From a virus (lineage: Duplodnaviria > Heunggongvirae > Uroviricota > Caudoviricetes): DNA of 64,000 nucleotides. A program made the position numbers and the translations under genes. The notes below the pieces were generated by a model that was given only the letters and a program-made list of their open reading frames with translations, did no database searches and was not told the DNA's origin. Within the stretch, counting starts at the first letter, position 1. Each line of letters opens with the position of its first letter. The stretch is taken from IMG/VR virus record IMGVR_UViG_3300006145_000003, one strand, 5' to 3'. Shown piece after piece: positions 1 through 24,167 of this stretch.

Positions 1-77
1 TTAGGGGTGCAAGGCAAGCCCAGCGCCGCCCAGCCCGCCGGGGTGACCCCCCTTTGCGGTTAGGGGTGCAAGGCAAG
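1..77. repeat. Two direct copies of ttaggggtgcaaggcaag (1-18 and 60-77) in a GC-rich tract at the window edge; followed by hairpin agggcttttcgtaaaagccct (88-110)
   Basis: Exact 18-bp direct repeat read from sequence; local GC much higher than rest of window. Confidence 0.5.
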
Positions 78-5284: not shown

Positions 5285-5371
5285 GCTGGTGTGACGGAAC
5301 TGGCAGACGGAACAGACTTAAAATCTGTTGCTAGAAATAGCGTGTGGGTTCAACTCCCATCACCAGCACCA
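5285..5371 (+). tRNA. tRNA-Leu (anticodon TAA), long variable arm, CCA encoded
   Basis: Acceptor GCTGGTG/CACCAGC; anticodon loop CTTAAAA; T-loop GGTTCAACTCC. Confidence 0.8.
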
Positions 5372-5373
5372 TA

Positions 5374-5466
5374 TGCAGATGTGTCCGAGTGGCTTAAGGA
5401 GCTTGTCTTGAAAACAAGTGAGTCGTGATGAGCGGCCCGTGGGTTCAAATCCTACCATCTGCGCCA
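5374..5466 (+). tRNA. tRNA-Ser (anticodon TGA), long variable arm, CCA encoded
   Basis: Acceptor GCAGATG/CATCTGC; anticodon loop CTTGAAA; T-loop GGTTCAAATCC. Confidence 0.8.
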
Positions 5467-5818
5467 TTCGCTGTTGGGAGTAACATCTCCTCATGTACTG
5501 TGCGTAAAGCAGTACACACACCTTAGGACTGGCATTTGCTGCTAAGAGGGGTCTTTAGCCCGACGAGGGCACGGCGCATAGCGTCAAACTGCTTGCAAGC
5601 ATCAGTGTCGGTGAAATTCCGACTACACTTTGCAAGATGTTCAGTGGATTAGCTTGCCTTGCTCGAATGGGAGGCAAGTTCTTGCAAAGGGAGGCGCTCC
5701 AAGATGAGCGATGGCTAAGGGCTGATGTCTGAGTCAGCACTTGTTCAGTCAAGGCTCCAGTAACTTAGAAGGGTACAACAAACCCTTACGGACCTTGTGG
5801 TTTCGCAAGGCCAACCGT

Positions 5819-5892
5819 GCCCAAGTAGCTCAATCGGAAGAGCACTCGGAGGTATTCCGGAGAAGATTCAGGTTCGAGTCCTGACAGGGAAA
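5819..5892 (+). ncRNA. degenerate tRNA-like element (good D-, anticodon- and T-arms; acceptor stem does not pair)
   Basis: GTAGCTCAATCGGAAGAGC D-arm and TCAGGTTCGAGTCCTGA T-arm are canonical, but 5' GCCCAAG does not pair with 3' CAGGGAA. Confidence 0.3.
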
Positions 5893-6200
5893 TCCTTTTA
5901 AAATCTGACACTTGGAGGGTGCTTAAAATGATTATTAGTAACTTCATCATGTGTAGGTAGGGTTGCACGGTGAGCCCGCCCCGAAAACCGTGCCCGTTAT
6001 GATAGGAAACAAAGGCTGATATTCGCAGTTGGCTGGAGTTTTCATCATAATGCGAATGTAGATTATTTTATAATACGGCTTAGTTTTCTTCTAATTCGGT
6101 GGCTTTTGGCATAGTGAGATGACGGTGTATCCGCCGCCCAAGTTAGCCAAGCGCTGAAGTTCGCGATATAATTGATGCGAACAATTATGTCGCACTATTT

Positions 6201-6276
<76 letters not shown>

Positions 6277-6404
6277 CGGCAGTAAATGCATCTTACAATA
6301 AATCTACAAGCTGTTGCAAGATGTAACCCACCAGGCACCGTACCTAACCTGGGAAATCAAAACCGGTAGAGGTATGACGATAAAACCCGTCAGCCTCGAA
6401 ATAT

Positions 6405-6480
6405 GAACCATTAGCGCAGCGGTGAGAGCAACCGGCTCATAACCGGTAGGTCGTAGGTTCGATTCCTACATGGTTCACCA
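6405..6480 (+). tRNA. tRNA-Met/Ile2 (anticodon CAT), CCA encoded
   Basis: Acceptor GAACCAT/ATGGTTC; anticodon stem ACCGG/CCGGT with loop CTCATAA. Confidence 0.8.
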
Positions 6481-7763: not shown

Positions 7764-8470
7764 GATAGGTTCCAAAATCAAAACTCAAAGTTAAAGGAGA
7801 CACGGTATGACAAAAGAAGATTTATGGTTTGTAGGGTGTGTATGTTACCGCAGGGTGTTCCACTTGGCTGGGCGGTAGCGAATTACATTTTTTCGATTGG
7901 GTTCCGCCCCACTGTGCGGACATGAGAGGGAAAAATATGGCTTATAATGCACGAGACCAGCCCCAAGTTGACTCCTTGTCTTATGGCAGATAGGCGAGGG
8001 GTCTAATAGAGTCTGCTATTCATGATAATTATTCTTTAGCTTACATAGCGCTGCTGCCTGATAATCTAATTGGAGGAGTTTGCATGTGGGTGTCTTGCAG
8101 CAGTGCTTCATATGGGGATGTCGCTGATTTAGGGCGCAAAAGTGGTGCAACTCCAAGCATCCTCACTGGATAGTTCTATCCCTGTAATGCAATAACCGTT
8201 AATGCGGTGCTTATCGCCATAGGCATAAGTAACACATGGCTGGACAAGGAAGCCGGGCACGGGATACCTGAAGACTGCAGCCTGGCCACCCCAATACCGA
8301 CGACATCGCATCTCGAACTCACAAACCCGCGTCATCGGACAATGGGGCCCAATGACCAGCCCGAAGCTCCAGGCTGCAGACCGAGTCAGATGAGCATCCG
8401 ACGGCAGCGCCGAGGCTAAAATCAATCCTATGTAGATTATAGGGGTAAAGCATTTTGGAGGTGGTTACAA

Positions 8471-9061
8471 ATGGCTGTGAAGATTTATGTCGAGCCAGAT
8501 GATACCTGGGATTTCTTCGACGATAATCTGTACCGGCTAAAAGAGGAAATGGTTCTTATAGCAGAAAATGAGGAAACAGAATATTCAGTGTTCATTACTG
8601 AGAATAATGGGAATCCGCTATTTTCTGTTTGCAAAGGAGATGCAGCTCCTGAGTATGAGGCTGAATCATCTGATGAAATAGATTGTGTAAATACAGCCGA
8701 GGTATTGTACATGCAGTACCTATATCCAGTCGTCGTTGTTGATGGTCACTCGATTCAACTGGACGATATTGACGATGAATCTGCAACACGGAGGCAGGAG
8801 CTGGAAGATGGACAATACGAACGGGAAGACGAGCTTACGATGGCACTTTGCGAATTCCTTGAGATTGTATTACAAGGAGATTTTTGCTTTGAAGAATCGT
8901 GCGACTTGAAAATGGTTGAAGATACTTTGGACTATATTTTGAAATATCTTACAAAAAACTGGAATTTTTCGATATACCGCCCAATGTTTATAGACGACGG
9001 AAACGGTGGAGAGGTATATAGCGAGTTTCCATATGACGAGTTCAATTTTTCGGAGGAGTGA
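8471..9061 (+). CDS. acidic hypothetical protein
   Basis: ORF with RBS ggaggtgg; D/E-rich. Confidence 0.5.
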   Translation: MAVKIYVEPDDTWDFFDDNLYRLKEEMVLIAENEETEYSVFITENNGNPLFSVCKGDAAPEYEAESSDEIDCVNTAEVLYMQYLYPVVVVDGHSIQLDDIDDESATRRQELEDGQYEREDELTMALCEFLEIVLQGDFCFEESCDLKMVEDTLDYILKYLTKNWNFSIYRPMFIDDGNGGEVYSEFPYDEFNFSEE

Positions 9062-9066
9062 AGTTT

Positions 9067-9726
9067 ATGCCCAGATGTTTAGACGATATGCCCTGGCGCT
9101 CCTTAAAGGGTTTAGGAAATTTAGCACCTAAGCTACTTCACGTTGGTGATTTCAAAAATGAACAACTAAAAAACGGAGTGGATGTCCAATTTAGATTGAT
9201 TGGACTAAATCATGATGTAACTGAGAACGGTATCATTCTTCCCATGACTTGGGAAATGATTGAGTGCTTGCCCGAGAGGTATAGGTGGAACAACAACGAC
9301 ACGACGCGCGGTTCCTGGGCTGGAACCAAACTGTGCCAGAGTATGAATAACCCAGACGGGGAAATATACCAGCTCCTTCCAGACGAGATTGTTTCACTGG
9401 CTGAACCTGTGGTGAAACTCACTGCTAATACATACGACGGCTCAAACAGTATTATCGAATCAGTTCATAAGTTCTGGATAAAGTCTGAAAAGGAAACATA
9501 CGGCAGATGCTTTTACTCTGCTCCTGGCGAGGGTAAGTGGTATGAATACTATCGCCAAGAGGATGTTCCGTGGAGTAAGAAACGTAATGGAGCAGAAGAG
9601 AACTGTTCACTACGGTCGCCGTGTGAAGGGAGTGATTACTCCTTCTGCAGTGTGTACACGGACGGCACCGCGAACGGCAGCAACGCCAGGTATTCCATTG
9701 GCGTGGCCCCGGCTTTCAGTTTCTAA
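9067..9726 (+). CDS. hypothetical protein
   Basis: RBS ggaggag then ATG 9067 (GTG 9058 alternative). Confidence 0.5.
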   Translation: MPRCLDDMPWRSLKGLGNLAPKLLHVGDFKNEQLKNGVDVQFRLIGLNHDVTENGIILPMTWEMIECLPERYRWNNNDTTRGSWAGTKLCQSMNNPDGEIYQLLPDEIVSLAEPVVKLTANTYDGSNSIIESVHKFWIKSEKETYGRCFYSAPGEGKWYEYYRQEDVPWSKKRNGAEENCSLRSPCEGSDYSFCSVYTDGTANGSNARYSIGVAPAFSF

Positions 9727-9912
9727 TCTGCTATATCAAAAGAGTCTGCACCACGCAAGTGGTGCAAGAGCAAACAAATATAGTAATCCGCCGGTCGATA
9801 ATGACCGGCGGGAATTTATGCCCACAATGGCTCCAACCTCCTCGTGGTGTGGGTGGAAAGTCGAAAGACGAACCGATTGGAGTACATTATTATAATTAAA
9901 GGAGTTTTTACT

Positions 9913-10415: not shown

Positions 10416-10643
10416 ATGATTAAAGTTACTGTTGGCAACAATCTGAAGCGCGAGGCCGTTATCATCGACAAGAACACTACTCTGCGTACCTGCCTGGAAG
10501 ACAACGGCGTAGATTATACCCGTGGCACGATGAGCCTGGATGGTTCAACATTGGCTCCCGGCGACCTGGATAAGACGTTCGAGCAGTTCGGCATCACTGA
10601 GAAGTGCTTCCTGCTGAACGTTGTTAAGGCTGACAACGCCTAA
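10416..10643 (+). CDS. small beta-grasp (ThiS/MoaD/ubiquitin-like) protein candidate, 75 aa, no C-terminal GG
   Basis: MIKVTV start, size and hydrophobic periodicity like MoaD/ThiS; sits first in an E2-like/JAB/E1 operon. Confidence 0.45.
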   Translation: MIKVTVGNNLKREAVIIDKNTTLRTCLEDNGVDYTRGTMSLDGSTLAPGDLDKTFEQFGITEKCFLLNVVKADNA

Positions 10644-10680
10644 GCCGACAAGTTCGTTATACATACCCACCTCCTAACGC

Positions 10681-10713
10681 AGAGGGACATCTAAATGATG
10701 TCCCTCTTTTATT
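10681..10713 (+). terminator. rho-independent terminator (agagggacat ctaa atgtccctct + TTTTATT)
   Basis: 10-bp perfect stem followed by T-run. Confidence 0.7.
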
Positions 10714-10715
10714 AT

Positions 10716-10800
10716 GAGGAATTGGCGGAATAGGTAGACGCGCCAGATTTAGGTTCTGGTGGTTTATACCGTATCGGTTCAAGTCCGATATTCCTCACCA
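10716..10800 (+). tRNA. tRNA-Leu (anticodon TAG), long variable arm, CCA encoded
   Basis: Acceptor GAGGAAT/ATTCCTC; anticodon stem CCAGA/TCTGG loop TTTAGGT; T-loop GGTTCAAGTCC. Confidence 0.8.
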
Positions 10801-10824
10801 AATTTTATAAATTGAGGTGTTAAT

Positions 10825-12357
10825 ATGTTCAGAACAAGCATAACATCAACGCCGCTTACATCAAGTACAGCAAATGGATGCTTTCCAAACATCAATGGTA
10901 GGCCTTTTTCAAATGATATATCTTTTTTGGCAACACTGCGAGCGCTGGTTGCCCCTAGGATTCCTGCGGATGAAGAGATATATTTGTTTTTTGGCTCTTC
11001 TTCATATGGGGCTAGCGTAGTAAAAGATAACTCTGCACGCGACATTGTGAGGGCAATCTGCGGAGGTTATGACCTTGAATCTACCGGAAGATTGTTCGTA
11101 CACAATCTTCGTGGTGGACAAGACGACATAAAGGCTAACCTTAAGGTGATAGATGAGACTCTTTGCGCGGTGTATCCGGGCTATCATCGGCTTGACAAAG
11201 TCAAGGAGTTTTATAAGAAGAGTTTCGATGTGGATTGTTATATCAATCCTGAAATAAAGTCTACAATTGTATTTGTTGACAATTTGGACAATCGAAAGCT
11301 CCATTACTTAGAGGTGTCCATTCTGGCCTTTTTCCCTTGGTACTTTAATCCCGAAGATGGATTGGCTGAGGATGAATTTGCGTTAATTAAATCCCTCAGA
11401 GAGAATAAGCCAGACAGTTATAAAGCCTGCATTGAAAAGTTGGCAGAGAAATATGACTTTAGAACTGCCCGCATCAAGCAAATGCTTAGTGGTTTTGAAA
11501 CTCGTTATGAGCGGATTGAGCTAGAAAGGGTGCAAGAATCTATCCGTGCTATCGAAAGAGATATAAACAATCTAAATCAGCGAATTGGCACTTACCTGAC
11601 TGATAGACATGAGAAGTGTATTCGGGTGATGGGGTTACAGAACAAGATAGCGAGTGGAGGCAGCGAAAGCTCGGAAATTATGGACTACTTCTTATGCAAT
11701 AAGAGGCTTGTTTTGGAAGAAGTTTCCGACACCGATATGTTTTTTGCAGTCAAAGATTACTACGAATTCTTTGACAAGGATGCAGCAGAAACCATTATAG
11801 ATAACAAAAATAGTTTCGTGTATTACGGACATTCGCATCGTGATGGCATGAATCCTGATAAAATGGAGCGGCTGTTGCGTGAGCTATTTGTTAGTGATTC
11901 ACCACGACTTCGGATGCGGGTATGTGCAGCTTATCGGTTTGACCTAAATGGTAGTGTGCAGGGACGTTCTGGTCATGACTTCGGAACTGAGTTTACGGGG
12001 TATATGCCTAATCCTCATATAAATCGCTATTCTTGCATGGGCAATTATCAAATGATAATCAACGAATTGCTTATGCAGCAAGATTACATAGGGGCATTAG
12101 AGCAGTGCGTTGCTTCGTGCAAAAGTTTGAATTGGAACGACAGCACAGTGATGGAATCTTTTATGGACACATTGTGGAGCAGCGGAGAAGCAAGCAAGTG
12201 TATAGAACTTCCTAATGGCAAAGTAGTTAAGCCATATGAGGCTGTACAATGGCTTGAAGAGCAAGATGAAGATTCCCAGGGTAAAGAGGAAGCAAAAATC
12301 GATTGCAGTGGTGAGCAGTCGTCTGAATCAGATGGTGAAGAAGAGCCTTTGTTTTGA
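10825..12357 (+). CDS. 510-aa protein with candidate E2-like (UBC-fold) catalytic region near C-terminus (PNPHINRYSCMG)
   Basis: HPN-like His then Cys ~8 aa later resembles E2 active site; operon position between Ubl and JAB/E1. Confidence 0.35.
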   Translation: MFRTSITSTPLTSSTANGCFPNINGRPFSNDISFLATLRALVAPRIPADEEIYLFFGSSSYGASVVKDNSARDIVRAICGGYDLESTGRLFVHNLRGGQDDIKANLKVIDETLCAVYPGYHRLDKVKEFYKKSFDVDCYINPEIKSTIVFVDNLDNRKLHYLEVSILAFFPWYFNPEDGLAEDEFALIKSLRENKPDSYKACIEKLAEKYDFRTARIKQMLSGFETRYERIELERVQESIRAIERDINNLNQRIGTYLTDRHEKCIRVMGLQNKIASGGSESSEIMDYFLCNKRLVLEEVSDTDMFFAVKDYYEFFDKDAAETIIDNKNSFVYYGHSHRDGMNPDKMERLLRELFVSDSPRLRMRVCAAYRFDLNGSVQGRSGHDFGTEFTGYMPNPHINRYSCMGNYQMIINELLMQQDYIGALEQCVASCKSLNWNDSTVMESFMDTLWSSGEASKCIELPNGKVVKPYEAVQWLEEQDEDSQGKEEAKIDCSGEQSSESDGEEEPLF

Positions 12358-13289
12358 GTTGGAGGGTAGATATGAGCAAACCGATTAAGATAACGGAGCA
12401 GTTTCTAAATGAGTGTCGTGCTGATTTTGAAAAGGCACTCCAGCTAACGAAGTTAGCAGACGGGAAAATTTCGTTTACGAAATCTTTTTCTGCTGGGAAT
12501 GAGAAAGCAGCCATTTTGTTTGCACCGATTGCTTGGGCCAAGATGGTAATGCTCATCAAAGAATTCGATAAGGAAGTTGCTTGGCATGGTGTAGCGTTCC
12601 GCAGTGATAACACCGAAGCAAATGAATACATCATTAAGGATATCCTCGTCTATCCTCAGGAGGTTACGCAGACCACGGTAGAGATGGATACGGAGAAGTA
12701 TTCACAGTGGTTGATAGATAACATTGAGGATGAGCGATTCAATAACATCAGAATGCAAGGTCACTCCCATGTGAATATGGGGGTGACACCCTCATCGGTA
12801 GACCTAAATCATCAGGAGGAAATTCTGAACATGCTCGGCGATGATGACTTTTACATTTTTATGATTTGGAATAAGTCATTCGCCAGCTTCGCTAAGATTT
12901 ACGATATGAGAAAAAATCTCCTGTTTGAAAATGGTGATATAACTACCAAGGTAATTGGTGAGGGCGAGGATTTGGGCGAGTTTATCAAGGGTGCCAAGGG
13001 GATGGTGGAGACAAAATACACATACAACAGCACAGGTTATGGCCAATACGGTAATAACGGTTACTGCAATACTGGATATGGGTCATACCCCAATAATATC
13101 ATCGAGGCATCTTCTTATACACAGGGAAAAACCTCTGATGAAAAGAAAGACAAGAAGTCCGATGGTAAAAAGACTGAAAAAAAAGAAAAAAACAAAAAAG
13201 ATAAGCCGCGCACAAGAATTGGAGCTGGATGGCACGGGCTCAATAGCCAGGAAATAGAAGACCTGTATTCAAAGGGATACTATGACTAG
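12354..13289 (+). CDS. JAB/MPN (JAMM) metalloprotease-like protein with Lys-rich low-complexity C-terminus
   Basis: HSHVNMGVTPSSVD fits JAMM motif HxHx7Sx2D; overlaps upstream gene by 4 nt. Confidence 0.6.
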   Translation: MSWRVDMSKPIKITEQFLNECRADFEKALQLTKLADGKISFTKSFSAGNEKAAILFAPIAWAKMVMLIKEFDKEVAWHGVAFRSDNTEANEYIIKDILVYPQEVTQTTVEMDTEKYSQWLIDNIEDERFNNIRMQGHSHVNMGVTPSSVDLNHQEEILNMLGDDDFYIFMIWNKSFASFAKIYDMRKNLLFENGDITTKVIGEGEDLGEFIKGAKGMVETKYTYNSTGYGQYGNNGYCNTGYGSYPNNIIEASSYTQGKTSDEKKDKKSDGKKTEKKEKNKKDKPRTRIGAGWHGLNSQEIEDLYSKGYYD

Positions 13290-13296
13290 GAGGTAA

Positions 13297-13974
13297 ATGA
13301 CTATGGATTTGTCTAAAAGTTATGAGTATTTTCAGCCTGAGAAGGTGACCGAAAGAATCAATATTGTCGGTTGCGGTTCTGTGGGAGCTACTATCGCAGA
13401 GAATTTGGTGAGGCTTGGACTCACCAAAATTTCTTTGTGGGATATGGATGCCGTTACACCACACAATCTTGCCAATCAGATTTTCCGGCATAAAGATATT
13501 GGGCACGCAAAGGTCGAAGCGCTGGCGGACATTCTCACAGAGATAAATCCTGATATCCAAGACGACTTGAAACTGTTTTCTGATGGATGGAACGGTCAGC
13601 AGCTTAACGGGTACGTCTTTTTGTGCGTGGACAATATTGAGTTGCGGCGGCAGATTGTCGAGAAGCATCTCAATAATCCCTATGTCAAAGCAATGTTCGA
13701 CTTCCGCACATTACTGGAGTCTGCGCAGCATTATGCGGCGGATTGGTCTAACTACAAGATGAAAAAGGACTTTCTTAACTCCATGGCGTTCTCTCACGAA
13801 GAGGCGGCAGAAGAGACTCCTGTGTCGGCCTGTGGGGTTACTCTCGGTGTTGCGCCAACTGTACGGATGATATGTGCTTTTGGTGTAACAAATTTCGTGA
13901 ATTTTGTCAGAGGGAACGGTCTGAAGAAGATGATTCTTAATGATGCGTTCCACTATATGCTTGATGCTTTTTAG
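13297..13974 (+). CDS. ThiF/MoeB/E1-like adenylyltransferase (Rossmann GxGxxG)
   Basis: INIVGCGSVGATIAENLVRLGLTKISLWDMDAVTPHNLANQ matches E1/ThiF nucleotide-binding motif. Confidence 0.65.
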   Translation: MTMDLSKSYEYFQPEKVTERINIVGCGSVGATIAENLVRLGLTKISLWDMDAVTPHNLANQIFRHKDIGHAKVEALADILTEINPDIQDDLKLFSDGWNGQQLNGYVFLCVDNIELRRQIVEKHLNNPYVKAMFDFRTLLESAQHYAADWSNYKMKKDFLNSMAFSHEEAAEETPVSACGVTLGVAPTVRMICAFGVTNFVNFVRGNGLKKMILNDAFHYMLDAF

Positions 13975-14016: not shown

Positions 14017-14357
14017 CTTAAAACTGTAACGTATATCCTGTTAAGGAGCTTTACGCTATAAGCTAAAGTGTCAAATTGCTGGGGAAGATACCCGCCGGAA
14101 GGGAAGCACTCCGCTCCGGACGCACGTCGGAACCCACCGGTCAAAAGGCAACAGCAGCTCGCTAGGGCAATTCGCAATACAGCAAACAGAGGATATTTCG
14201 GAATCACCAGGAGTTTGAGCAACAAAAGTCGCAATATAACCCAAATGACTTCAGGAATAACCCGCCCAACTGCGGCGAGTCAGCAACCAACGCCGCAAAT
14301 ATCACAGCTAAACGGAGGCGTGCCCAGACCAATACTCTATGTTAGGTTACAGCTAAG
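14017..14357 (+). ncRNA. candidate retron msr/msd non-coding region bounded by inverted repeats a1 (cttaaaactgtaac) and a2 (gttacagctaag); interior strongly A/C-rich
   Basis: 11/12 complementary inverted repeats flank ~315 nt directly upstream of the RT start, the arrangement typical of retrons. Confidence 0.35.
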
Positions 14358-14373
14358 TAAAGGAGAGACTATT

Positions 14374-15534
14374 ATGGTGTTTATAACAGTTAGGCAGTCA
14401 CCATTTTATCATCAAATGTCCTTGGAGGAATATCTGTTTCAGAACTTTGAATCGCCAGTGCTTATCAATGAAAACACAGCAAACACCAGAACGTATCAGT
14501 GTCGCACTGTGAGCTCCAAGTTTTTGGACAAGATAAATGTAGATGGGCTGATTTCAAAGCTCAAAAGGTTCAATGATTCAACAACAGAGCTGCGCAAAGA
14601 AAATCGCGAATCTCTATATAAAACATTTTACATTCCAAAGAAGTCTGGTGGGTTGCGCAAAATAAACGCACCAAAGCCAGATTTGATGGACGCACTAAGG
14701 AGGCTGAAAAGAATCTTTGAAGATGATTTTCATGCACTTTACCATACATCAGCCTTCGCTTACATACAAAATCGATGCACTGTAGATGCTGTAAAGCGGC
14801 ATCAAAATAATAAGAGTAAGTGGTTCGGTAAGTTAGACTTACATGATTTCTTTGGAAGCACTACTCTAGAATTCGTGTTAAATATGTTCTCGCTGATTTT
14901 CCCATTTAGCGAAGTAGTTAAGGTTCCAGATGGAAAAGAGGCGCTTGTAACTGCACTAGAACTTGCATTTTTAGATGGTGGGTTGCCTCAAGGAACTCCT
15001 ATATCTCCAACTATAACAAACATTATGATGATTCCAATTGATTTCGAACTTACAAAGGCATTTCGAGAGTTTCAAGTTGGAGTACCTGGCAAGAAAAAGA
15101 CGCAAAGTTTCATATATACAAGATATGCCGATGATTTCATTATTTCATCGAAGTATGACTTCGATGTTCGGAAAATTGAAGAATTTGTTGTGAACACTTT
15201 GGAGAAGTATAACGCTCCATTCACAATCAATGCAAAGAAGACAAGATATGGCTCATCTGCTGGCAGAAATTGGAACTTGGGCGTTATGCTTAACAAGGAT
15301 AATGAAATTACAGTAGGACACAAACGTAAGAAACAGTTTCAAGCAATGATGTATAATTACGTAACTGATAAGCGCAATGGCGTTGAGTGGACTCGTGAAG
15401 ACCTGATGACGATGCATGGCTTGTACAGCTATTATAGGATGGTTGAAAAGGATGTGATAGACGCAATTGTAAAGCATATGAATGACAAATTGAACGCAGA
15501 TGTTATCGCCTTGATAAAAGGTGATTTAAGATAG
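14374..15534 (+). CDS. reverse transcriptase, retron-type
   Basis: IPKKSGGLRKI, LDLHDFFGS, LPQGTPISP, YTRYADD, NAKKT motifs (RT motifs 1-7); no maturase or endonuclease domain; RBS aaaggagag. Confidence 0.85.
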   Translation: MVFITVRQSPFYHQMSLEEYLFQNFESPVLINENTANTRTYQCRTVSSKFLDKINVDGLISKLKRFNDSTTELRKENRESLYKTFYIPKKSGGLRKINAPKPDLMDALRRLKRIFEDDFHALYHTSAFAYIQNRCTVDAVKRHQNNKSKWFGKLDLHDFFGSTTLEFVLNMFSLIFPFSEVVKVPDGKEALVTALELAFLDGGLPQGTPISPTITNIMMIPIDFELTKAFREFQVGVPGKKKTQSFIYTRYADDFIISSKYDFDVRKIEEFVVNTLEKYNAPFTINAKKTRYGSSAGRNWNLGVMLNKDNEITVGHKRKKQFQAMMYNYVTDKRNGVEWTREDLMTMHGLYSYYRMVEKDVIDAIVKHMNDKLNADVIALIKGDLR

Positions 15535-15843
15535 TACCTGTAATGCATAACTGTATAGACAGTGCTTCTCGTTGTAAACAGAAGTAACGCTTTGCTGGGC
15601 AAGGAAAGAACCTTGCGGAAAGTATCCCAGATGCCCCGACCCAGTCGACTACAGAGAGCCCAACTACCACCAAGTCATCCAATACCTAAACACATAAGCA
15701 ACACTATGGCTCCCATCGTCTCGACACTCAGGCCCGAAATGAAACGACCCCTTCACCACCTAGCCCCGCAGCAGAAACCTGCGTTTTAGAAGGACAGTCA
15801 CATACTCAGATTACAGGTTATCACAAATGAAAGGTGTGGTATT

Positions 15844-16188
15844 ATGACAAGAGACGAGTTTATTACGGCAGTAGAGGGTGGAAGAATTATCTATTGTTCT
15901 TGTATCGAAGAAAGAAATGATGTGTTACAATATCTGTTTGACTGTGACTTTAAAATAGGAGGAGCTTCACTTGGGTATCTGGAACCTGGCAATTGTGATG
16001 ATGAGTTTTTGAGCCCTGGATTTAACCAGAGCGCAGGATATATAAGTTGTTATAGGAACGCCGCTTTGGACAGAAGAATTCGCCTTATACACTATAATGA
16101 AATATCTTCACTTATCGAAGGGCCACCTCAAAATGAAATGTCAGATGATGAATTTAAAGAATCGCTATTAAACCTTATTGCTGGATAA
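15844..16188 (+). CDS. hypothetical protein (N-terminus MTRDEFI, paralogous to the start of 16394)
   Basis: ORF; shared N-terminal heptapeptide with 16394 product. Confidence 0.5.
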   Translation: MTRDEFITAVEGGRIIYCSCIEERNDVLQYLFDCDFKIGGASLGYLEPGNCDDEFLSPGFNQSAGYISCYRNAALDRRIRLIHYNEISSLIEGPPQNEMSDDEFKESLLNLIAG

Positions 16189-16200
16189 TTCCAGCAACAC

Positions 16201-16277
16201 GCAGCATTAGTGTTCAACGGTAAGCACACCAGTCTTCCAAACTGGGAGTGCCGGTTCAAATCCGGTATGCTGCTCCA
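16201..16277 (+). tRNA. tRNA-Gly (anticodon TCC)
   Basis: Acceptor GCAGCAT/ATGCTGC; anticodon stem CCAGT/ACTGG loop CTTCCAA; T-loop GGTTCAAATCC. Confidence 0.8.
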
Positions 16278-16283
16278 TAATAC

Positions 16284-16359
16284 TGGGCTGTCGCCAAGCG
16301 GTAAGGCAACGGACTTTGACTCCGTCATCTCGTGGGTTCGAATCCCGCCAGCCCAGCCA
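16284..16359 (+). tRNA. tRNA-Gln (anticodon TTG)
   Basis: Acceptor TGGGCTG/CAGCCCA; anticodon stem ACGGA/TCCGT loop CTTTGAC; resembles bacterial tRNA-Gln. Confidence 0.8.
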
Positions 16360-16393: not shown

Positions 16394-16909
16394 ATGACAA
16401 GGTCAGAATTTATAGATGACATTACCTCATGGAGTGAGCTTTTGGAGTTTTGTTCGGAAGAAAGCTGTGATTTGCTTGAAGATATCTTCGATGAGGAATC
16501 GATGGATTCTGAAATCAACGAATTTCTTGGTGATTATGTAAGGGATTACGATTGGTACAATTTAAGAGATAACCTAAAAGAAATTCCAACCGGATATGAT
16601 TATTATAGACAAAATGGCCCATTAGATTGGGTTGGACTTACAGATGATGATTTAGATGATTATAAAAATGATGTGCTTCAGTGGGCAGAAGACTATGATG
16701 TCTTCGAGGATGAAGATGATGAAGGCGATGATGGCATAGATAACGAAGAACAGGAAGAACCAGAAGACCCACCCATAGAAGATGAAGACTTTCCTTTTGA
16801 CGAGCTGTTTGGATTGTGCGCACAGGCATGTAGTTCAATTCAAGAGGTCAATAGGCATCAAGAAGAGGCAGAGTATACCGAGTTTGAAAATTTTGTAAAG
16901 TGTGGGTGA
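16394..16909 (+). CDS. highly acidic protein (D/E-rich)
   Basis: RBS aaggag; long D/E tracts. Confidence 0.55.
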   Translation: MTRSEFIDDITSWSELLEFCSEESCDLLEDIFDEESMDSEINEFLGDYVRDYDWYNLRDNLKEIPTGYDYYRQNGPLDWVGLTDDDLDDYKNDVLQWAEDYDVFEDEDDEGDDGIDNEEQEEPEDPPIEDEDFPFDELFGLCAQACSSIQEVNRHQEEAEYTEFENFVKCG

Positions 16910-17215
16910 AAAACTTGGACGAGGTGAAAGTAGGGGAAGGCATTGGGTTTGAAAGAATTAGAAGAATTACCGGATACTTGGTTGGTACGACTGACAGGTG
17001 GAATAACGCTAAGCGCGCAGAAGAGCGCGACCGAATCAAGCACTGTGTTGACAGTGCCAAAACGTAAAGTGCTGGCTACAATATAAGCCAGTTAATATAG
17101 TTGCTTTGCATATTTGCTGTTTTACATATTGAACGTATTATACGGCAGCTTTTCGCTTTTAGCAAAAGAAAAGGTTCGTTTGCTTCGCTTCCTGCTTAGA
17201 TAATTTACTCTGAAG

Positions 17216-17253
17216 TTTTAATTATATATATCCGGAGGCATATATAATTAAAA
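17216..17253. repeat. AT-rich perfect inverted repeat TTTTAATTATATATA-tccggaggca-TATATAATTAAAA
   Basis: Read directly; lies in 460-bp AT-rich intergenic region. Confidence 0.6.
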
Positions 17254-17371
17254 CTCAGACTAACTTATCTAGCAAAGAAGCGTCGCCCTTGTGTATACAA
17301 AACCCTTCCACTCGAAGGCTTTTGTACAGAAAGCAACTATAAGACTATAACTAAAAACAGGAGGATAAGAT

Positions 17372-17926
17372 ATGCGGGTTTTAGTAGTTGTTGATATGCA
17401 GAATGATTTTATTGATGGTACGCTTGGTACAGACGAGGCCATTACCATTGTGCCAAGGGTTATCGAAAAAATCAAGAAGTTTGATGGCGACATGATTATC
17501 ACTCATGATACCCACAAAGAAAATTACCTGGGTACGCTAGAAGGAAGAATGCTGCCGGTGACACATTGTATTCAAGGGACGGAGGGGTGGAAACTGCATG
17601 ATGAAGTTTTTTCAGCGGTTGACAACCGTGTCCGAGCCGGTACTGCTAATGCGCAGGTATTTATGAAACCTACATTTGGTTCGGTAGAATTGGGTGAATA
17701 CCTGGTTAACAAGAGTCATGATGTGGACATTGATGAGGTCGTTCTGGTGGGTTTGTGTACCGATATCTGCGTTATATCCAATGCTCTACTCATTAAAGCA
17801 TTTCTGCCAGAGATTAAGGTGACTGTGGATGCTGCCTGCTGCGCTGGGGGCACGCCAGAGAGCCACGAGAATGCTTTGCGGGCTATGCGGATGTGTCAGG
17901 TTAATGTCGAGAATTGGGAGGGATAA
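17372..17926 (+). CDS. pncA: nicotinamidase / isochorismatase-family hydrolase
   Basis: VVVDMQNDF and GLCTDICV catalytic motifs. Confidence 0.8.
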   Translation: MRVLVVVDMQNDFIDGTLGTDEAITIVPRVIEKIKKFDGDMIITHDTHKENYLGTLEGRMLPVTHCIQGTEGWKLHDEVFSAVDNRVRAGTANAQVFMKPTFGSVELGEYLVNKSHDVDIDEVVLVGLCTDICVISNALLIKAFLPEIKVTVDAACCAGGTPESHENALRAMRMCQVNVENWEG

Positions 17927-17927
17927 A

Positions 17928-18719
17928 ATGATTGCAGTTAATGGGGCACCAGTAGACTTCACACAGTTCCCGGATGGTACAACATCTTTCCGTTTTGACC
18001 CCGATTCAAGCACTACCATTTATTGGGGGTATGACGGAGACCATGAGTGTATCTTGCTGTGGTATTTAGTGAATCATGTCCGCTCTGTGGTAGGACATGA
18101 CACCTATATTCGTCTTATTATGCCATACATTCCAAATGCCAGAATGGATAGAGTAAAGAACAAGGATGAAGTGTTCACCCTAAAATGGTTTGCCGCTTTC
18201 ATTAACAATATGCATTTGAATGAGGTGATTGTGTTTGACCCACATTCCAATGTATCCGCTGCGCTTATCAATCACATCCAAGTTATTCAACCGGATAAAT
18301 ACATCAAAGAAGCAATCTCTGCTATCGGTGATAACAACCTTTTGCTGTGCTACCCAGATGAAGGTGCGGCTAAAAGATATTCTGAGCTGATGGAGGCCGA
18401 GTACATTTTCGGTATTAAGCATAGGGATTGGCGCACCGGCAGAATTGAGCGGCTAGAGTTGACCACTCCAGATAAGGTAGTAGGTCGTACTGTTCTAATT
18501 GTGGACGATATCTGTTCGCGTGGTGGCACGTTTACACATACGGCAAAGGCATTAAAAGAAGCAGGTGCCAATGACATATATCTATATGTTTCCCACTGTG
18601 AGAACACCATTACGAAAGGTACGGTACTGACAGACGACCTGATTCGTCATGTTTTTACCACTGACAGTATATATCGTGGTGAATATGAAAGAATCACCGT
18701 ATTAAAACAGGAGGCATAA
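17928..18719 (+). CDS. prs: ribose-phosphate pyrophosphokinase (PRPP synthetase)
   Basis: VLIVDDICSRGGTF PRPP-binding motif; overall Prs layout. Confidence 0.8.
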   Translation: MIAVNGAPVDFTQFPDGTTSFRFDPDSSTTIYWGYDGDHECILLWYLVNHVRSVVGHDTYIRLIMPYIPNARMDRVKNKDEVFTLKWFAAFINNMHLNEVIVFDPHSNVSAALINHIQVIQPDKYIKEAISAIGDNNLLLCYPDEGAAKRYSELMEAEYIFGIKHRDWRTGRIERLELTTPDKVVGRTVLIVDDICSRGGTFTHTAKALKEAGANDIYLYVSHCENTITKGTVLTDDLIRHVFTTDSIYRGEYERITVLKQEA

Positions 18720-18720
18720 A

Positions 18721-20235
18721 ATGATTCTATATAACCCATTGCTTTGTTTGGACTTTTACAAAACTGCCCATGCAGAGCAGTATCCGCAAACATTAACCAA
18801 AATGGTTTCTTACTATACGCCGCGAATGACCCGCTTGGAAGATACGGATAAGGTCACATTGTTTGGACTACAAGCGTTTATTAAGGAATTTCTTATTGAT
18901 GCGTTCAATATCAATTTCTTCTGGAAAAATTGGGAAGACGTACTTACGGAATATAAGCGTATTCTTAACGCCACCATCAATACGGATGGTATCGGAGAGA
19001 AACGGATGAAAGCACTGCACAACCTCAGGTATCTTCCTTTGGAGATTCGAGCTGTGCCAGAGGGTACTCGTACAAATATTAAGGTGCCACAGATTGAGAT
19101 TTCTAACACTCACCCGGATTTTGTATGGCTAGTCAACTCCATCGAAACCATGCTATCCTGTACCATGTGGCACACTCAGGTTTCCGCTGAGGTAGGATAC
19201 CGCTATCGTCAAATCGTCAATGAGTACGCCGAACGTACTTGTGATGATGGCACGGTTCGCGCAAGACTCCTTGGCGATTTTTCTATGCGCGGCCAGGAGA
19301 GTGCAGAAAGTGCAACTAAAAGCTCTGCTGCATTCTGTCTTAGCTTCCTGAATACAGCTACAGTTCCGGCCATCCTCTGGCTGGAGGACAACTATAACTG
19401 TGATTGTACCAAGGAGCAGGTTGCTTTCGGCGCTCTGTCCACAGAACACAGTGTGATGTGTTCGAACTATGCCATCGACGGCGATGAGATTACTCACATC
19501 AACCGACTTTTGACAGAGGTTTATCCGCATCAGAGTTTCTCTATGGTTAGCGATAGCTACGACTACTGGAATCTGGTGAACGAAATTCTACCCCAACTCA
19601 AGGATGAGATTCTGGCGCATGACGGTTGCTTGTCTATTCGCGGTGACAGCGGAGACCCTGTAGAAGTTGTTACTGAGACTGTATTTAGACTATGGGATAT
19701 CTTTGGCGGAACGGTCAACAGTAAAGGCTTTAAGGTTCTAAATCCTCATGTTAAGGCGTTGTATGGTGACAGCATTACACCCCGGCGCTGCAAGCAGATT
19801 TACGAAATCCTTGAGAACGCCGGGTTTGCCATTAACAATGTTGCTCTTGGTGTTGGTTCTTTCTCCATGCAATGTCTGGAGACAATTATCAGAAATGATG
19901 AGGGGCTAGCTGGTTATTCTGAGGTAAAAGCCTATGCGCCATATACTCGCGATACATTTGGTATCGCTGTTAAGGCCACATATGCCGAGGATGCTGATGG
20001 CAAGCCTATTATGATTTTCAAGAACCCCAAGACCGATACTGGACACTTTAAGAAGTCACAACGTGGTTGTTGCCGCGTGTATAAGGACGGTGACAACTAC
20101 ACCTATGAAGATGGCCTGACCTGGGCAGAAGCGCAAGGAAACAACGAGCTTCGGACGGTCTTCAAGAATGGTGAGTTTATCAAGACATACACACTATCCG
20201 AAGTACGCCAGAATCTTCACGGCGGACGGTTCTGA
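18721..20235 (+). CDS. nadV: nicotinamide phosphoribosyltransferase (Nampt/NadV)
   Basis: N-terminal DFYKTAH motif, ~500 aa; NAD-salvage neighbours. Confidence 0.8.
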   Translation: MILYNPLLCLDFYKTAHAEQYPQTLTKMVSYYTPRMTRLEDTDKVTLFGLQAFIKEFLIDAFNINFFWKNWEDVLTEYKRILNATINTDGIGEKRMKALHNLRYLPLEIRAVPEGTRTNIKVPQIEISNTHPDFVWLVNSIETMLSCTMWHTQVSAEVGYRYRQIVNEYAERTCDDGTVRARLLGDFSMRGQESAESATKSSAAFCLSFLNTATVPAILWLEDNYNCDCTKEQVAFGALSTEHSVMCSNYAIDGDEITHINRLLTEVYPHQSFSMVSDSYDYWNLVNEILPQLKDEILAHDGCLSIRGDSGDPVEVVTETVFRLWDIFGGTVNSKGFKVLNPHVKALYGDSITPRRCKQIYEILENAGFAINNVALGVGSFSMQCLETIIRNDEGLAGYSEVKAYAPYTRDTFGIAVKATYAEDADGKPIMIFKNPKTDTGHFKKSQRGCCRVYKDGDNYTYEDGLTWAEAQGNNELRTVFKNGEFIKTYTLSEVRQNLHGGRF

Positions 20236-20264
20236 TGGTGGCGATAGAGAAAAGAGGATAAGAA

Positions 20265-21019
20265 ATGATTTTTAACCCACAAGAAACAAAAGATGACCTC
20301 GTCCAATGGATTCGTAAGTATTTTGCCGACAATGGCCCGATGTGCAGCGCCGTTGTTGGTATATCTGGGGGTAAAGACAGCACCATTGTTGCGGCATTGT
20401 GCGTAGAGGCGCTTGGTAAGGACAGAGTTATTGGCGTCTTGATGCCAAACGGTGTCCAGAATGATATTGATGACTCTTTTAGTGTAGTGAACAGCCTCGG
20501 CATCCGGAACATCAAAGTCAACATTGGAGCCGCATATAAAGAACTAGTTGAAGCAGTCGATGGTGCACTAAATGAAAGTGTGAGTACGCAGACACGGGTA
20601 AACCTCCCCCACGACTCCGCATGGCAACGTTATATGCGGTTGCTCAATCACTGCCAAACGGAGGGCGCGTTGCTAATACTTGCAATATGTCCGAGGACTA
20701 TGTGGGATACTCCACAAAGTTCGGTGACAGTGCAGGTGATTTTAGTCCGCTTGCTAACCTCACAGTAAGTGAGGTACGACAGATTGGGTGCATTCTTTCA
20801 AATGAGCTTTCAATTCCGGCATACTTAATAACAAAGACTCCATCGGACGGTCTATGTGGTAAAACTGACGAGGATAACCTTGGCTTTACGTATAACCAGC
20901 TGGATGCATATATCATGACGGGGACATGCTGTGACGAAGAAATTGACCACAGGATTGCGAGTATGCACGACGCTAATCTACACAAGTTATTACCCATGCC
21001 AACATTTGCAATACTTTGA
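20265..21019 (+). pseudogene. nadE: NAD+ synthetase (NadE) interrupted by a -1 frameshift at C5 run 20606-20610
   Basis: Frame 1 has PP-loop GISGGKDST; frame 2 (from ~20600) has RLRMATLYAVAQ...GYSTKFGD; adding one C restores continuous NadE. Confidence 0.75.
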
Positions 21020-21351: not shown

Positions 21352-22629
21352 ATGAGGAATTCCTTAGTTCAGATTGAAGCGCTTTGTAAGGCGAAAGGAA
21401 AGAACGATAAATTGGACATCATTCGTCGAAATAGCAATAACGATGAGTTTTGCCAATTCCTCTACTATGCATTGAATCCAATGCTAACCTACAAGGTATC
21501 GGAGAGCAGGCTCCGGCAACCATTTATCTATACCACATCTGCACCTATTCCACCTTCAATGCTGAACATCTTTTCAATATGCGAAGAGTTATCCTCGCGC
21601 AAAGCTTTGGATTTTATAACTTTGGAGCAGGTATGCGCTTTTTTGGAAGCGTGTGAATCTGACGAGAAAGAGATATATATTAAGCTTCTGGCAAAAACAT
21701 TGCGGCTAGGTGTCACTGCGAAATCTGTCAATAAGGTTATCCCTGGTCTAATACCAACATGGGAAGTTCAACAGGCATATCCTATTGATGAACACTCCAT
21801 CAAGGACGGAGAATGGTTCGCTTTAACCCAGAAATTAAATGGGGTTAGAGCAACTTTTTATAAAGGAAAGCTTTATGCGCGAAGCGGAATCAAGTTTGAT
21901 GGTCTTGAGCATATCATACAGGAATTCTCATGGGATGTCAATGCGGAGTATGTGTTCGATGGAGAGCTTACTTTGCTGGATAAAGGTAGGCTTTCTGATA
22001 ATGAAGCCTTTCGGAAGGCAACAGGAATTATTAACTCGGATAGAGATAAAACGGGCATTTGCTATACAGTCTTCGACATGGTGAGTACATTAGAGTTTGA
22101 ATCGGACGGTTGCCTTACGACGTATGCAGTTCGACGTAAGGAGCTGGAAACAATAGCCCATAACTTTTCTGTCAACGGATACGTTCAGATTCTTCCAGTT
22201 CTTTATATGGGTACAGACCAGTCGAAAATTCCCGAACTTTTGGAGAAGATGGTTAACGAAGACAAAGAAGGGCTGATAGCAAATCTCGATGTCCCATATA
22301 GAAGGAAACGACATAAAGGAATATTGAAAATTAAAGAGTTCTACACTATGGATTTACCAATCATTCGTTGCGAAGAAGGAACTGGAAGACTTTCAGGTAC
22401 ATTAGGTAGTTTTGTTGTAAGTTTCTTCGATGATGAAGTTGGTATTGGTTCAGGATTTACGGATAGGGAAAGAGAAGAATTTTGGGGTATGCGTGAAGAA
22501 ATTGTAGGAATGCTTTGCGAGGTAAGATATAAGGAAATATCAAGCGACAAGAATACTGGAGCAAAAAGTCTACAATTCCCATCATTTGTACGCTTGCGCT
22601 TAGACAAGGAGGATGTAAGTTATGGCTAA
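21352..22629 (+). CDS. ATP-dependent DNA ligase (nucleotidyltransferase motif I KLNGVR)
   Basis: TQKLNGVRATF (motif I), EGLIAN (IV), ILKIK (V). Confidence 0.65.
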   Translation: MRNSLVQIEALCKAKGKNDKLDIIRRNSNNDEFCQFLYYALNPMLTYKVSESRLRQPFIYTTSAPIPPSMLNIFSICEELSSRKALDFITLEQVCAFLEACESDEKEIYIKLLAKTLRLGVTAKSVNKVIPGLIPTWEVQQAYPIDEHSIKDGEWFALTQKLNGVRATFYKGKLYARSGIKFDGLEHIIQEFSWDVNAEYVFDGELTLLDKGRLSDNEAFRKATGIINSDRDKTGICYTVFDMVSTLEFESDGCLTTYAVRRKELETIAHNFSVNGYVQILPVLYMGTDQSKIPELLEKMVNEDKEGLIANLDVPYRRKRHKGILKIKEFYTMDLPIIRCEEGTGRLSGTLGSFVVSFFDDEVGIGSGFTDREREEFWGMREEIVGMLCEVRYKEISSDKNTGAKSLQFPSFVRLRLDKEDVSYG

Positions 22630-23252: not shown

Positions 23253-24167
23253 TTGAAGGGAAAAATTGGAGCATTGATTCTGGCCGTGATTCTAATTCTC
23301 GGCATCGTGTGCTGCGTAGTATGTTTGGAGAAAATTCCTGCGGGCTATGTTGGTGTTGTGTACAATATGAACGGAGGAGTAGATGGAGAGGTTCTGCCGC
23401 AGGGGTGGCATCTTGTGCCACCTACTAAGAAAATAACCAAGTATTCAATTGGAATTGAGCAGTCGTATTTGACTGCGGAGGATAAGGGAGACTCTCCAAA
23501 AGACGAGAGCTTTAATATTCCAACGTCTGATGGAAAGACAGTGCGCGTTAACCTGGAATTTTCTTATCGTTTTGATGAGGCCCGAGTTTCTGAGACATTC
23601 GCGACATTCAAGGGCAAGTCTGGCGATACTATCAAGGACTCCTTTATTAAGCCAAAGGTTATTGCTTGGACTCAGGAAGTGTCTGCAAACTATCCCGTTA
23701 CAGACATATTCGGCGACAAGAGGACTGAAATCAATGCTGAGCTAGATACATACCTTCGCGAGAGATTTGACCAGTATGGTATCATCATTGATACGGTGAA
23801 CTTTACCGACATATCCGTGGACGATGAAACCGCATCGGCAATTCAGAAGAAAGTAACCGCTCAGCAGGAGCTAGAACTTGCTAATATTGAGGCACAAACA
23901 GCAAAGATTCAGGCCGAAAAGGACAAGGAAGTTGCCCAGATTCAGGCAGAGAAAACTATTATTGAGGCAGAGGCAAGCGCCGAAAAGGTGAGAATTGCCG
24001 CAGATGCCGAAGCCGATGCCAATCAAAAGATTGCTCGTTCACTAACTGGTGAACTGATTGAGAAAATCAAGTACGAGCGGTGGAACGGTGAGCTTCCTAC
24101 AGTTTCAGGCGGGAGTGCCATTGTAAGCATTGGGGAGCCCAATAACGAACCTGCTCCAGCTGAATAA
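23253..24167 (+). CDS. SPFH/band-7 (stomatin/HflC-like) membrane protein with C-terminal coiled coil, TTG start
   Basis: N-terminal TM then PAGYVGVVYN...G..LPQGWHLVPP; heptad-rich AQQELELANIEAQTAKIQAEKDKEVAQIQAEK. Confidence 0.65.
   Translation: MKGKIGALILAVILILGIVCCVVCLEKIPAGYVGVVYNMNGGVDGEVLPQGWHLVPPTKKITKYSIGIEQSYLTAEDKGDSPKDESFNIPTSDGKTVRVNLEFSYRFDEARVSETFATFKGKSGDTIKDSFIKPKVIAWTQEVSANYPVTDIFGDKRTEINAELDTYLRERFDQYGIIIDTVNFTDISVDDETASAIQKKVTAQQELELANIEAQTAKIQAEKDKEVAQIQAEKTIIEAEASAEKVRIAADAEADANQKIARSLTGELIEKIKYERWNGELPTVSGGSAIVSIGEPNNEPAPAE

Follow-up and report, generated by a model that had tools for sequence, protein, structure and literature searches.

Retrons are understood as bacterial anti-phage systems that comprise one reverse transcriptase (RT), one non-coding RNA (ncRNA), and one effector. 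The locus considered here lies in a stretch of 64,000 nt from the IMG/VR virus record IMGVR_UViG_3300006145_000003 (Caudoviricetes), referred to below as the window, and consists of an RT gene with one ncRNA element on either side, together with three further members of the ncRNA family (8177-8447, 17096-17341, 41640-41868) outside the coordinates first reported. An original prediction, made for 14017-15843, had proposed a retron with a single ncRNA upstream of the RT. With a probability of roughly 0.7, the locus represents a phage-borne retron in which one RT serves several templates. This reading draws on the family of the RT, an RNA architecture with covariation, the linkage and common orientation of the elements, their hypervariability, and their composition, all established by computation; from these we infer recognition of the RNAs by the RT, branch priming, cDNA synthesis, and a biological role.

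The RTs closest to the window RT are those of the bacterial retrons of types I-A and II-A (Ec83/Eco4, Ec78/Eco7, St85/Sen2, Ec86/Eco1). As in these systems, an ncRNA is located directly upstream of the RT on the same strand, with an a1/a2 helix, a G after a1, an opposing G before a2, and two short msr-like hairpins (criteria in PMC7736814), and the copies of one of the two ncRNA classes, class B, also carry a long msd hairpin. Unlike the bacterial retrons, the system is encoded by a phage with a large genome and has three to five ncRNA genes per RT, which fall into two classes and are found upstream, in tandem downstream, or dispersed. The class A templates (236-347 nt) are rich in A+C and have little structure, and their rate of evolution exceeds that of synonymous-like sites; the RT carries a conserved N-terminal extension of ≈ 70 amino acids, the motifs AVKRH and NLG, and a score below the St85 cut-off; no known effector (NDT, ATPase/HNH etc.) adjoins, and the ncRNA is outside Rfam 15.

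Carriage by phages or prophages as such has precedents. Prophage-borne retrons are known, namely Ec67 and Ec73 of P4-like retronphages, and other phage records contain retron RTs as well; a tblastn search returned weak matches (25-28% identity) to RTs of Klebsiella, Pseudomonas Pf, Vibrio, and Staphylococcus phages. These phage-borne retrons, however, possess only one ncRNA each, their effectors, where known, are fused or adjacent, and they are distant from the window RT. The sole GenBank phage record in the RT family, MT835544.1, is uncultured, 42% identical, and unannotated, and when the locus was compared by blastn with 50,697 GenBank phages, nothing matched. Another comparable case is the Staphylococcus jumbo phage MarsHill, which is large and lytic, encodes a retron-like RT with neither features of diversity-generating retroelements (DGRs) nor a linked effector, and has a long (1.2-kb) non-coding region upstream of the RT, hypothesized to hold an ncRNA. 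On the other hand, its RT is a distant enzyme of 501 amino acids with an N-terminal domain of ≈ 200 amino acids, its ncRNA is undefined, and no multi-copy RNA family supported by covariation has been reported for it. Systems such as DRT2 and DGRs share the principle that a given part of a neighboring ncRNA is copied by an RT dedicated to it; here, in contrast, there is no never-ending open reading frame (ORF) signal, no pair of template repeat and variable repeat (TR/VR), and no adenine-specific variation, and the RT falls outside those clades. A published description of a phage retron with several ncRNAs was not found in the literature searched, which is no proof of absence. The layout with several ncRNAs is a recurrent one in a large, uncultured family of gut phages. 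Their hosts are probably gut Clostridia (Acutalibacteraceae/Oscillospiraceae): the metagenome-assembled genome (MAG) bins of relatives are mostly assigned to Acutalibacteraceae, Oscillospiraceae, Ruminococcus, and Lachnospiraceae, and one homologue of a 510-amino-acid neighbor of the RT is labelled Acutalibacter muris.

Reverse transcriptase

14374-15534, + strand: retron-clade RT of 386 amino acids; ATG at 14374, ribosome-binding site (RBS) AAGGAGAG at 14360-14367, stop codon TAG at 15532-15534

The RT had been described as a stand-alone enzyme, and the translated ORF bears this out: it contains the motifs IPKKSGGLRKI, LDLHDFFGS, LPQGTPISP, and YTRYADD, and a Pfam scan returned RVT_1 alone (2.5e-21), with no maturase or endonuclease domain. 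A six-frame scan for Y/F-x-DD found no second RT in the 64-kb window. The best PADLOC model was RT_II-A (1.1e-44), with 25 of the 25 listed matches being retron-type RT models; the top three NCBIfam models were likewise all retron models, headed by retron_St85_RT with 167.2 bits against a curated cut-off of 235; and the top ten sequence matches in the PDB were all retron RTs (Ec83, Ec78, Ec67, Kva2, Ec86). The group II RT/maturase model TIGR04416 gave 79.8 bits (cut-off 300), and the Drt2 model 35.7 bits (cut-off 390). The early suggestion that the motifs come closest to retron RTs thus agrees with PADLOC, NCBIfam, and PDB alike, and no intron RNA domains or TR/VR repeats accompany the enzyme. 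By sequence, the RT groups with retron RTs and not with group II or DGR RTs.

The published criteria for retron RTs (PMC7736814) name a region X with the motif NAxxH between RT2 and RT3, in which H is most conserved, and a region Y with the motif VTG in RT7, in which G is most conserved. In the window RT, region X reads AVKRH where Ec83 has NAKIH (family consensus DAVKRHQ), such that N and A are replaced, and region Y reads NLG where Ec83 has VTG, with N and L in place of V and T. All 53 distinct members of the RT family that were compared retain the YADD motif, the His of region X, and the Gly of region Y. Because the St85/II-A cut-off is missed and regions X and Y are altered, the RT is classified as a divergent retron-clade enzyme and not as a member of a described type.

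Five ncRNA elements and their relatives

Copies of the ncRNA were located with an nhmmer profile of the 5' domain and then with a covariance model (R1). The window holds five elements in two classes, all on the + strand, as is the sole RT; none matches a family in Rfam 15. SL1 and SL2 denote the two stem-loops of the 5' domain.

8177-8447, + strand: class A ncRNA copy 1; a1 TATCCCTGTAAT at 8177-8188, G 8189, opposing G 8435, a2 ATTATAGGGGTA at 8436-8447
14017-14357, + strand: class A ncRNA copy 2; a1 at 14017-14030 (core 14024-14030), a2 at 14346-14352, extended to 14357
Within copy 2, + strand: candidate branching G 14031; SL1 14036-14047; SL2 14048-14069; A+C-rich variable interior ≈ 14093-14338
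Within copy 2, + strand: conserved 3' motif TATGTTAG, the last base of which is the opposing G 14345
15536-15818, + strand: class A ncRNA copy 3; a1 ACCTGTAAT at 15536-15544, G 15545, opposing G 15809, a2 ATTACAGGT at 15810-15818
Within copy 3, + strand: SL1 and SL2 15550-15585; interior ≈ 15608-15805
17096-17341, + strand: class B ncRNA; a1 TATAGTTGCTTT at 17096-17107, G 17108, opposing G 17329, a2 AAAGCAACTATA at 17330-17341
Within 17096-17341, + strand: SL1; SL2 CTTTTCGCTTTTAGCAAAAG at 17149-17168; long msd-like hairpin
41640-41868, + strand: class B ncRNA; a1 TAACAGCTTT at 41640-41649, G 41650, opposing G 41858, a2 AAAGCTGTTA at 41859-41868
Within 41640-41868, + strand: SL1; SL2; long hairpin TTTTCAGACTG...CAGTCTGAAAA

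The element directly upstream of the RT, class A copy 2 (R1 67.2 bits, E 1e-12), was the starting point. The inverted repeat of 11 bp proposed for it was recovered as the helix of the minimum free energy fold, which uses exactly the a1/a2 pairing plus SL1 and SL2: the core CTGTAAC (14024-14030) is fully complementary to GTTACAG (14346-14352), and an outer helix joins CTTA (14017-14020) with TAAG (14354-14357) past an internal loop of 3 nt x 1 nt, 11 bp in total. Taken alone, this pairing is marginally above chance (p ≈ 0.035 versus shuffles), and the whole-element fold has z = -1.18. Also as proposed, a2 abuts the RBS of the RT, ending at 14357 and followed by the RBS and the ATG, the latter 16 nt beyond a2. 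On the other side of the gene, a1 of copy 3 (R1 71.7 bits, E 1e-13; fold z = -1.42) begins one base past the RT stop codon, and its first ≈ 90 nt are paralogous to copy 2 in an alignment of the two intergenic regions. The ≈ 300 bp past the stop had been seen as an A/C-rich flank; the composition holds, and the segment is really a second complete ncRNA. Copy 1, ≈ 6 kb upstream of the RT, was detected with nhmmer E 2e-14 and R1 62.6 bits; its a1/a2 score of 22 has p = 0.0 versus shuffles, and its fold z = -2.18. In relatives ≈ 10 nt separate tandem ncRNA copies. The 16-nt and 1-nt spacings around the RT suggest that it is co-transcribed with the copy that precedes it and the copy or copies that follow; promoter and terminator scans gave counts no higher than in shuffles.

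The comparison set comprised 67 IMG/VR loci (44-71% RT identity) and 25 MAG loci; among RT relatives in metagenomes, the best 120 matches listed were all at least 68% identical. Model R1 returned 162 matches at E<=1e-3 from 64 of the 67 viral loci plus the window, and, from an independent set made up of the MAG loci and L160 (the 223-kb contig GCA_948693885.1 labelled Acutalibacter muris), 53 matches at E<=0.01, in both cases all on the RT strand. Usually a single ncRNA precedes the RT and one or two, at most four, follow it in tandem; one locus, L075, has five in total.

In an ungapped alignment of 46 distinct class A copies, a1/a2 forms a 10-bp helix with 97% of cells paired, a percentage that is inflated because complementarity to the 14 nt preceding the G served to place a2 in every copy. 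Nine of the ten pairs changed on both sides, a score reached by 0 of 500 shuffles, and slid registers were 25-39% paired. Three features are unaffected by the choice of a2, namely that an invariant G flanks the helix on either side, that the helix types covary (CTGTAAC/GTTACAG, CCTGTAAT/ATTACAGG, TTTGCAAT/ATTGCAAA, ATGTACAAT/ATTGTACAT, CTATGCAAT/ATTGCATAG, CCGCAAT/ATTGCGG) and that a conserved YAUGUAG motif always stands immediately 5' of a2. What speaks against an artefact is the covariation, the constant register beside YAUGUAG, and the outcome of the slid controls. A possible extension of a1/a2 by a further helix (G+1..4 with YAUG of the 3' motif) was considered and rejected, with 61% of cells paired. 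In all 46 copies, a1 is followed and a2 preceded by an invariant G. A hallmark of retron ncRNAs is 'two opposing G residues' (PMC7736814), and the invariant G pair of class A matches these.

The two internal hairpins are equally well defined. SL2 has 6 + 3 bp and the motif GCUUnn-C-GCN-NNN-NGC-nnAAGU, with 99.7% of cells paired and changes on both sides in seven of nine pairs, and was independently recovered by RNAalifold on a MAFFT alignment. SL1 (4-7 bp) always abuts SL2 and is represented by 26 distinct arm sequences in 39 copies; its mean stem is 5.4 bp, compared to 2.7 bp in shuffles. The covariance analysis that had been proposed for 14017-14357 therefore comes out in favor of the a1/a2 helix and of both hairpins.

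The class B elements each contain a long, very stable internal hairpin. The one at 17096-17341 has a perfect 12-bp a1/a2 helix and a fold z = -8.44, with an nhmmer class B profile E of 4e-10; the one at 41640-41868 has a perfect 10-bp helix, a fold z = -7.20, and a class B profile E of 1e-14. Class B homologues were found 3-5 kb downstream of the RT in 34 related loci; in 25 distinct copies a1/a2 covaries and the G before a2 is present every time. A further trait of retron ncRNAs is the long msd hairpin with a stem of 10-50 bp (PMC7736814); it is present in both class B elements and absent from the class A copies. Of the canonical msr/msd layout claimed for the region upstream of the RT, the a1/a2 helix, the two G residues, and the two msr-like hairpins are thus in place, whereas the long msd hairpin is absent.

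Interior of the class A elements

The interior, defined as the region from the end of SL2 to ≈ 8 nt before a2, is set apart from the rest of the window by its composition, as had been noticed early on, with A+C at or above the 99.8th percentile in all three copies. For copy 2 (14093-14340) the A+C fraction is 0.63 (at or above the 99.9th percentile of the 250-nt windows of the 64 kb), and for copy 3 (15608-15805) it is 0.67 (100th percentile). The skew of these two copies stems from high C (0.30-0.35 versus 0.18) and low T (0.14-0.16 versus 0.27), and copy 1 has C 0.34 and T 0.12. The description as A/C-rich and T/G-poor needs to be qualified accordingly: A+C and C are high and T is low, but A is not enriched, and G is low in the downstream copy only. 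Across relatives, the mean interior composition is A 0.30, C 0.30, G 0.22, and T 0.19; A+C exceeds 0.55 in 42 of 45 non-redundant interiors, with a mean of 0.61 versus 0.50 for the locus background, and the excess persists in lineages where it is carried by A and not by C. Since a sequence composed mostly of A and C cannot pair with itself, the bias may reflect selection for a single-stranded template or product. A restriction-site or palindrome decoy was considered and rejected, the enriched k-mers CATC, GCAGC/GCTGC, GAGCT/AGCTC, and CCATTG being mostly arms of short local hairpins and not palindromic sites. In some lineages the interior does contain short local hairpins, with few compensatory changes.

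The interior also evolves rapidly. It diverges by 0.04-0.06 where RT third codon positions differ by 0.01, and by 0.10-0.21 where these differ by 0.045, that is, ≈ 2-5 times faster, while the 5' domain diverges at or below the third-codon-position rate. The differences are point substitutions scattered over 15%-90% of the element length (C/T 961, A/G 927, transition/transversion ratio 2.2). Biased hypermutation was ruled out, as C/T and A/G changes are equal and adenine is not favored.

It can be asked whether such elements are templates at all. They might act as RNAs, either as RT-binding leaders and trailers that regulate the RT or as A+C-rich decoy or sponge RNAs, with little or no cDNA being made. 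The lack of a canonical msd hairpin in the class A interior would fit this, as would an A+C richness expected of RNA selected to stay single-stranded and the position of copies at 8.2, 17.1, and 41.6 kb, far from the RT. Against it stand the conservation, with covariation, of a1/a2, both G residues, and the predicted initiation-site motif, the invariance of all catalytic motifs of the RT, and the number of copies, since a purely regulatory leader is not expected three to five times. We regard this explanation as improbable.

Another mode of RT action would be that of DRT2, with rolling-circle concatemeric cDNA making a new gene, or the synthesis of some other long cDNA. In DRT2 a helix of the ncRNA brings the ends of the template together. 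The end-joining helix described here resembles this logic, the template is long and has no hairpin, and in the window a run of 102 codons in the upstream interior contains no stop in the RT frame. However, stop-free frames in 114 copies were no longer on either strand than in dinucleotide shuffles (8-9% of copies at p<=0.1, the chance level), so that no coding signal was found in the interiors; the in-frame ORF is not conserved, with a stop 34 nt upstream of the ATG in the related locus L001; and the Drt2 model scores far below its cut-off, as given above. Such a mode is very hard to reconcile with these data.

Finally, several dispersed copies with a hypervariable interior might recall a DGR, a group II intron, or a mobile repeat spread by retrotransposition, and DGRs are frequent in gut phages (PMC5883640). 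This reading is largely refuted. A search by blastn-short plus an A-masked sliding comparison found no TR/VR-like match in the 64 kb on either strand, even with A positions ignored (the best matches, 0.60-0.72, being the paralogous 5' domains), and the substitution spectrum shows no adenine bias. No intron family of Rfam was matched at the gathering threshold or at E<=1, in line with the low RT/maturase score. The copies cannot well be mobile insertions either, because they hold orthologous positions in phages whose RTs are 44-70% identical. In sum, nothing in these tests pointed to diversification of a protein, to mobility, or to the synthesis of a gene de novo.

Proposed mechanism, possible roles, and genomic neighborhood

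For a phage-borne retron with several templates, the following course of events may be envisaged. Each RNA would close on itself via the a1/a2 helix, and the RT would recognize the 5'-domain hairpins common to the RNAs, chiefly SL2. Priming would be by the 2'-OH of the invariant G that directly follows a1, and copying would begin beside the invariant G just 5' of a2, such that an RNA-linked single-stranded cDNA (msDNA) would be formed. The three class A templates would yield long (up to ≈ 200 nt), G+T-rich, poorly self-complementary cDNAs, and the two class B templates classical hairpin msDNAs.

The sequence features that define a retron are present, apart from the class A msd hairpin and the exact motifs of regions X and Y. 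Several points weigh against this reading. The RT is below the curated St85 cut-off, and its regions X and Y read AVKRH and NLG, not NAxxH and VTG. The class A elements (236-347 nt) are long for retron ncRNAs, fold with whole-element z values of -1.2 to -2.2, and do not have the long hairpin of canonical retrons; their a1/a2 pairing percentage is inflated for the reason given above. Model R1 matches the class B elements weakly (15 bits, E 0.29, a local match on SL2, for 17096-17341; 20.2 bits, E 0.02, for 41640-41868), and what ties class B to the window RT is a common SL2 motif, a common architecture, and co-occurrence. The evidence reaches as far as an RT plus structured RNA, beyond which the cDNA step is argued by analogy. 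No effector has been identified for the retron, a role in conflict is deduced from genomic context and evolutionary rate, and the conserved synteny could merely reflect the collinearity of phage genomes.

The absence of a recognizable adjacent effector agrees with the original prediction: the ORF 15844-16188 has no match in four libraries and is not conserved, and no effector of the NDT-like kind found in retron type II-A, nor any other PADLOC, Pfam, or NCBIfam effector match, was seen in the flanking ORFs. The upstream side is occupied, again as predicted, by a ubiquitin-like (Ubl) cassette that directly precedes copy 2.

10416-13974, + strand: Ubl-type four-gene cassette, directly upstream of the copy 2 ncRNA
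10416-10643, + strand: Ubl-like ORF of 75 amino acids, with no hidden Markov model match
Between the Ubl-like and JAB-like genes, + strand: E2-like gene of the cassette, encoding a 510-amino-acid protein
12354-13289, + strand: JAMM-motif protein, HSHVNMGVTPSSVD; PADLOC JAB E 9e-4
13297-13974, + strand: ThiF/E1 protein, matching the E1 domain of CBASS Cap2-type models

This context lends itself to a different view of the function, with the mechanism left as it is. The locus could be a classical tripartite defense retron in a phage or prophage that serves superinfection exclusion, the msDNA restraining a toxic effector until a competing phage perturbs the msDNA; the effector would then be the Ubl/E2-like/JAB/E1 cassette or a metallophosphoesterase. 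The Ubl, 510-amino-acid, JAB-like, and ThiF/E1 genes are syntenic with the ncRNA and the RT in ≈ 50 of the 67 loci, down to 44% RT identity, and a metallophosphoesterase follows directly on the last ncRNA in 37-38 loci. Prophage carriage of a retron has a precedent in Ec67 and Ec73, and lysogeny is possible in view of a large serine recombinase in the window and of a relative on a 359-kb Eubacteriales contig. Yet no neighbor matches a known retron effector, there is no metallophosphoesterase near the RT in this window, and no known toxin-antitoxin retron has several templates that evolve fast. Moreover, in two loci (L142, L158) a distance of 5-6 kb, occupied by unrelated genes, separates the cassette from the RT, and because of such a separation in some phages a functional link between the cassette and the RT is unproven. 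All in all, we consider a tripartite retron, the chief rival with regard to function, unlikely, though by no means negligible.

The metallophosphoesterase of the relatives is calcineurin-like (for example L001:4739-5437; Pfam 9e-14, PHROG 1649) and in most of them its gene follows immediately on a2 of the final tandem ncRNA. Dbr1, which debranches lariats, belongs to the metallophosphoesterases as well; on this analogy the enzyme of the relatives could process the 2'-5' branch.

For the multi-template retron itself, a role in phage-host or phage-phage conflict, as a counter-defense decoy or in the exclusion of competitors, is favored by the genomic context and the faster-than-synonymous divergence and is held with low confidence. 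A more specific version, which we offer tentatively and at less than even odds, is that of an offensive retron in a widespread family of gut phages: one viral RT would convert an array of interchangeable, fast-diversifying A+C-rich templates, kept unstructured on purpose, into long, G+T-rich, branch-protected single-stranded DNAs, in addition to the class B hairpin msDNAs, and these would act as counter-defense decoys or as specificity determinants in such conflicts. If true, this would make it the first retron with several templates as well as the first case of a retron working on the viral side. The RNA-priming architecture of retrons is here found in a virus, with three to five templates per RT, no known effector, fast-evolving interiors, and a strand-specific A+C bias. 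Retron editors are limited by the structure and length of the msd. If the cDNAs are made, the locus would show what a phage does with msDNA, offer a natural RT that accepts several long unstructured templates, of interest for such editors, and provide a testable entry to a very abundant, uncultured lineage of gut phages.

The remaining features of the neighborhood, which is an accessory region, are the following.

5022-6480, 10716-10800, and 16201-16359, + strand: eight tRNA genes (Glu, Leu x2, Ser, Pro, Met, Gly, Gln)
17372-21019, + strand: NAD+ salvage cluster with isochorismatase-family (nicotinamidase-like), PRPP-synthetase-like, NAMPT/NAPRTase, and NAD synthase genes
41893-42975, + strand: large serine recombinase of 360 amino acids with Resolvase and Recombinase domains; PHROG integrase 2e-97

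Genes for NAD+ reconstitution and tRNAs carried by phages are known counter-defense devices. In the window, the tRNA-Leu gene at 10716-10800 is located inside the Ubl cassette, and two tRNA genes lie between the downstream ncRNA and ORF and the next conserved gene. The NAD synthase is represented by two overlapping ORFs, 20265-20768 and 20621-21019, a split that points to a frameshift or a sequencing error. The serine recombinase, the presence of which suggests a temperate lifestyle, starts 25 nt past the class B element at 41640-41868; it is short for its family and is followed by a separate ORF of 165 amino acids (42979-43476, + strand), so that it may be split.

Two strongly acidic proteins (8471-9061 and 16394-16909, + strand) have no family match in any library and are conserved near the RT, the former in 39 and the latter in 50 related loci; the gene at 8471-9061 directly follows class A copy 1. 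That these proteins are DNA-mimic-like is speculation. Proteins of the DUF6273/Hoc-like kind recur in the region (window 9058-9726, + strand; L001:1814-2620), and in many relatives such a gene is placed between the E1 gene and the upstream ncRNA. In L160, a pair of ORFs consisting of a 131-amino-acid and a 75-amino-acid Ubl-like ORF occurs twice (9120-9831 and 17269-17980), flanking the E2-like/JAB/E1/RT block on both sides. An ATP-dependent DNA ligase and an SPFH/Band 7 protein are encoded downstream of the NAD+ cluster (21352-22629 and 23253-24167, + strand). Apart from the ncRNA family described here, the window holds two orphan structured RNAs in a phage genome near the tRNA cluster, RAGATH-16 (308-378, 80 bits) and RAGATH-36 (4731-4860, 104 bits), both on the + strand and both matching Rfam above the gathering threshold.

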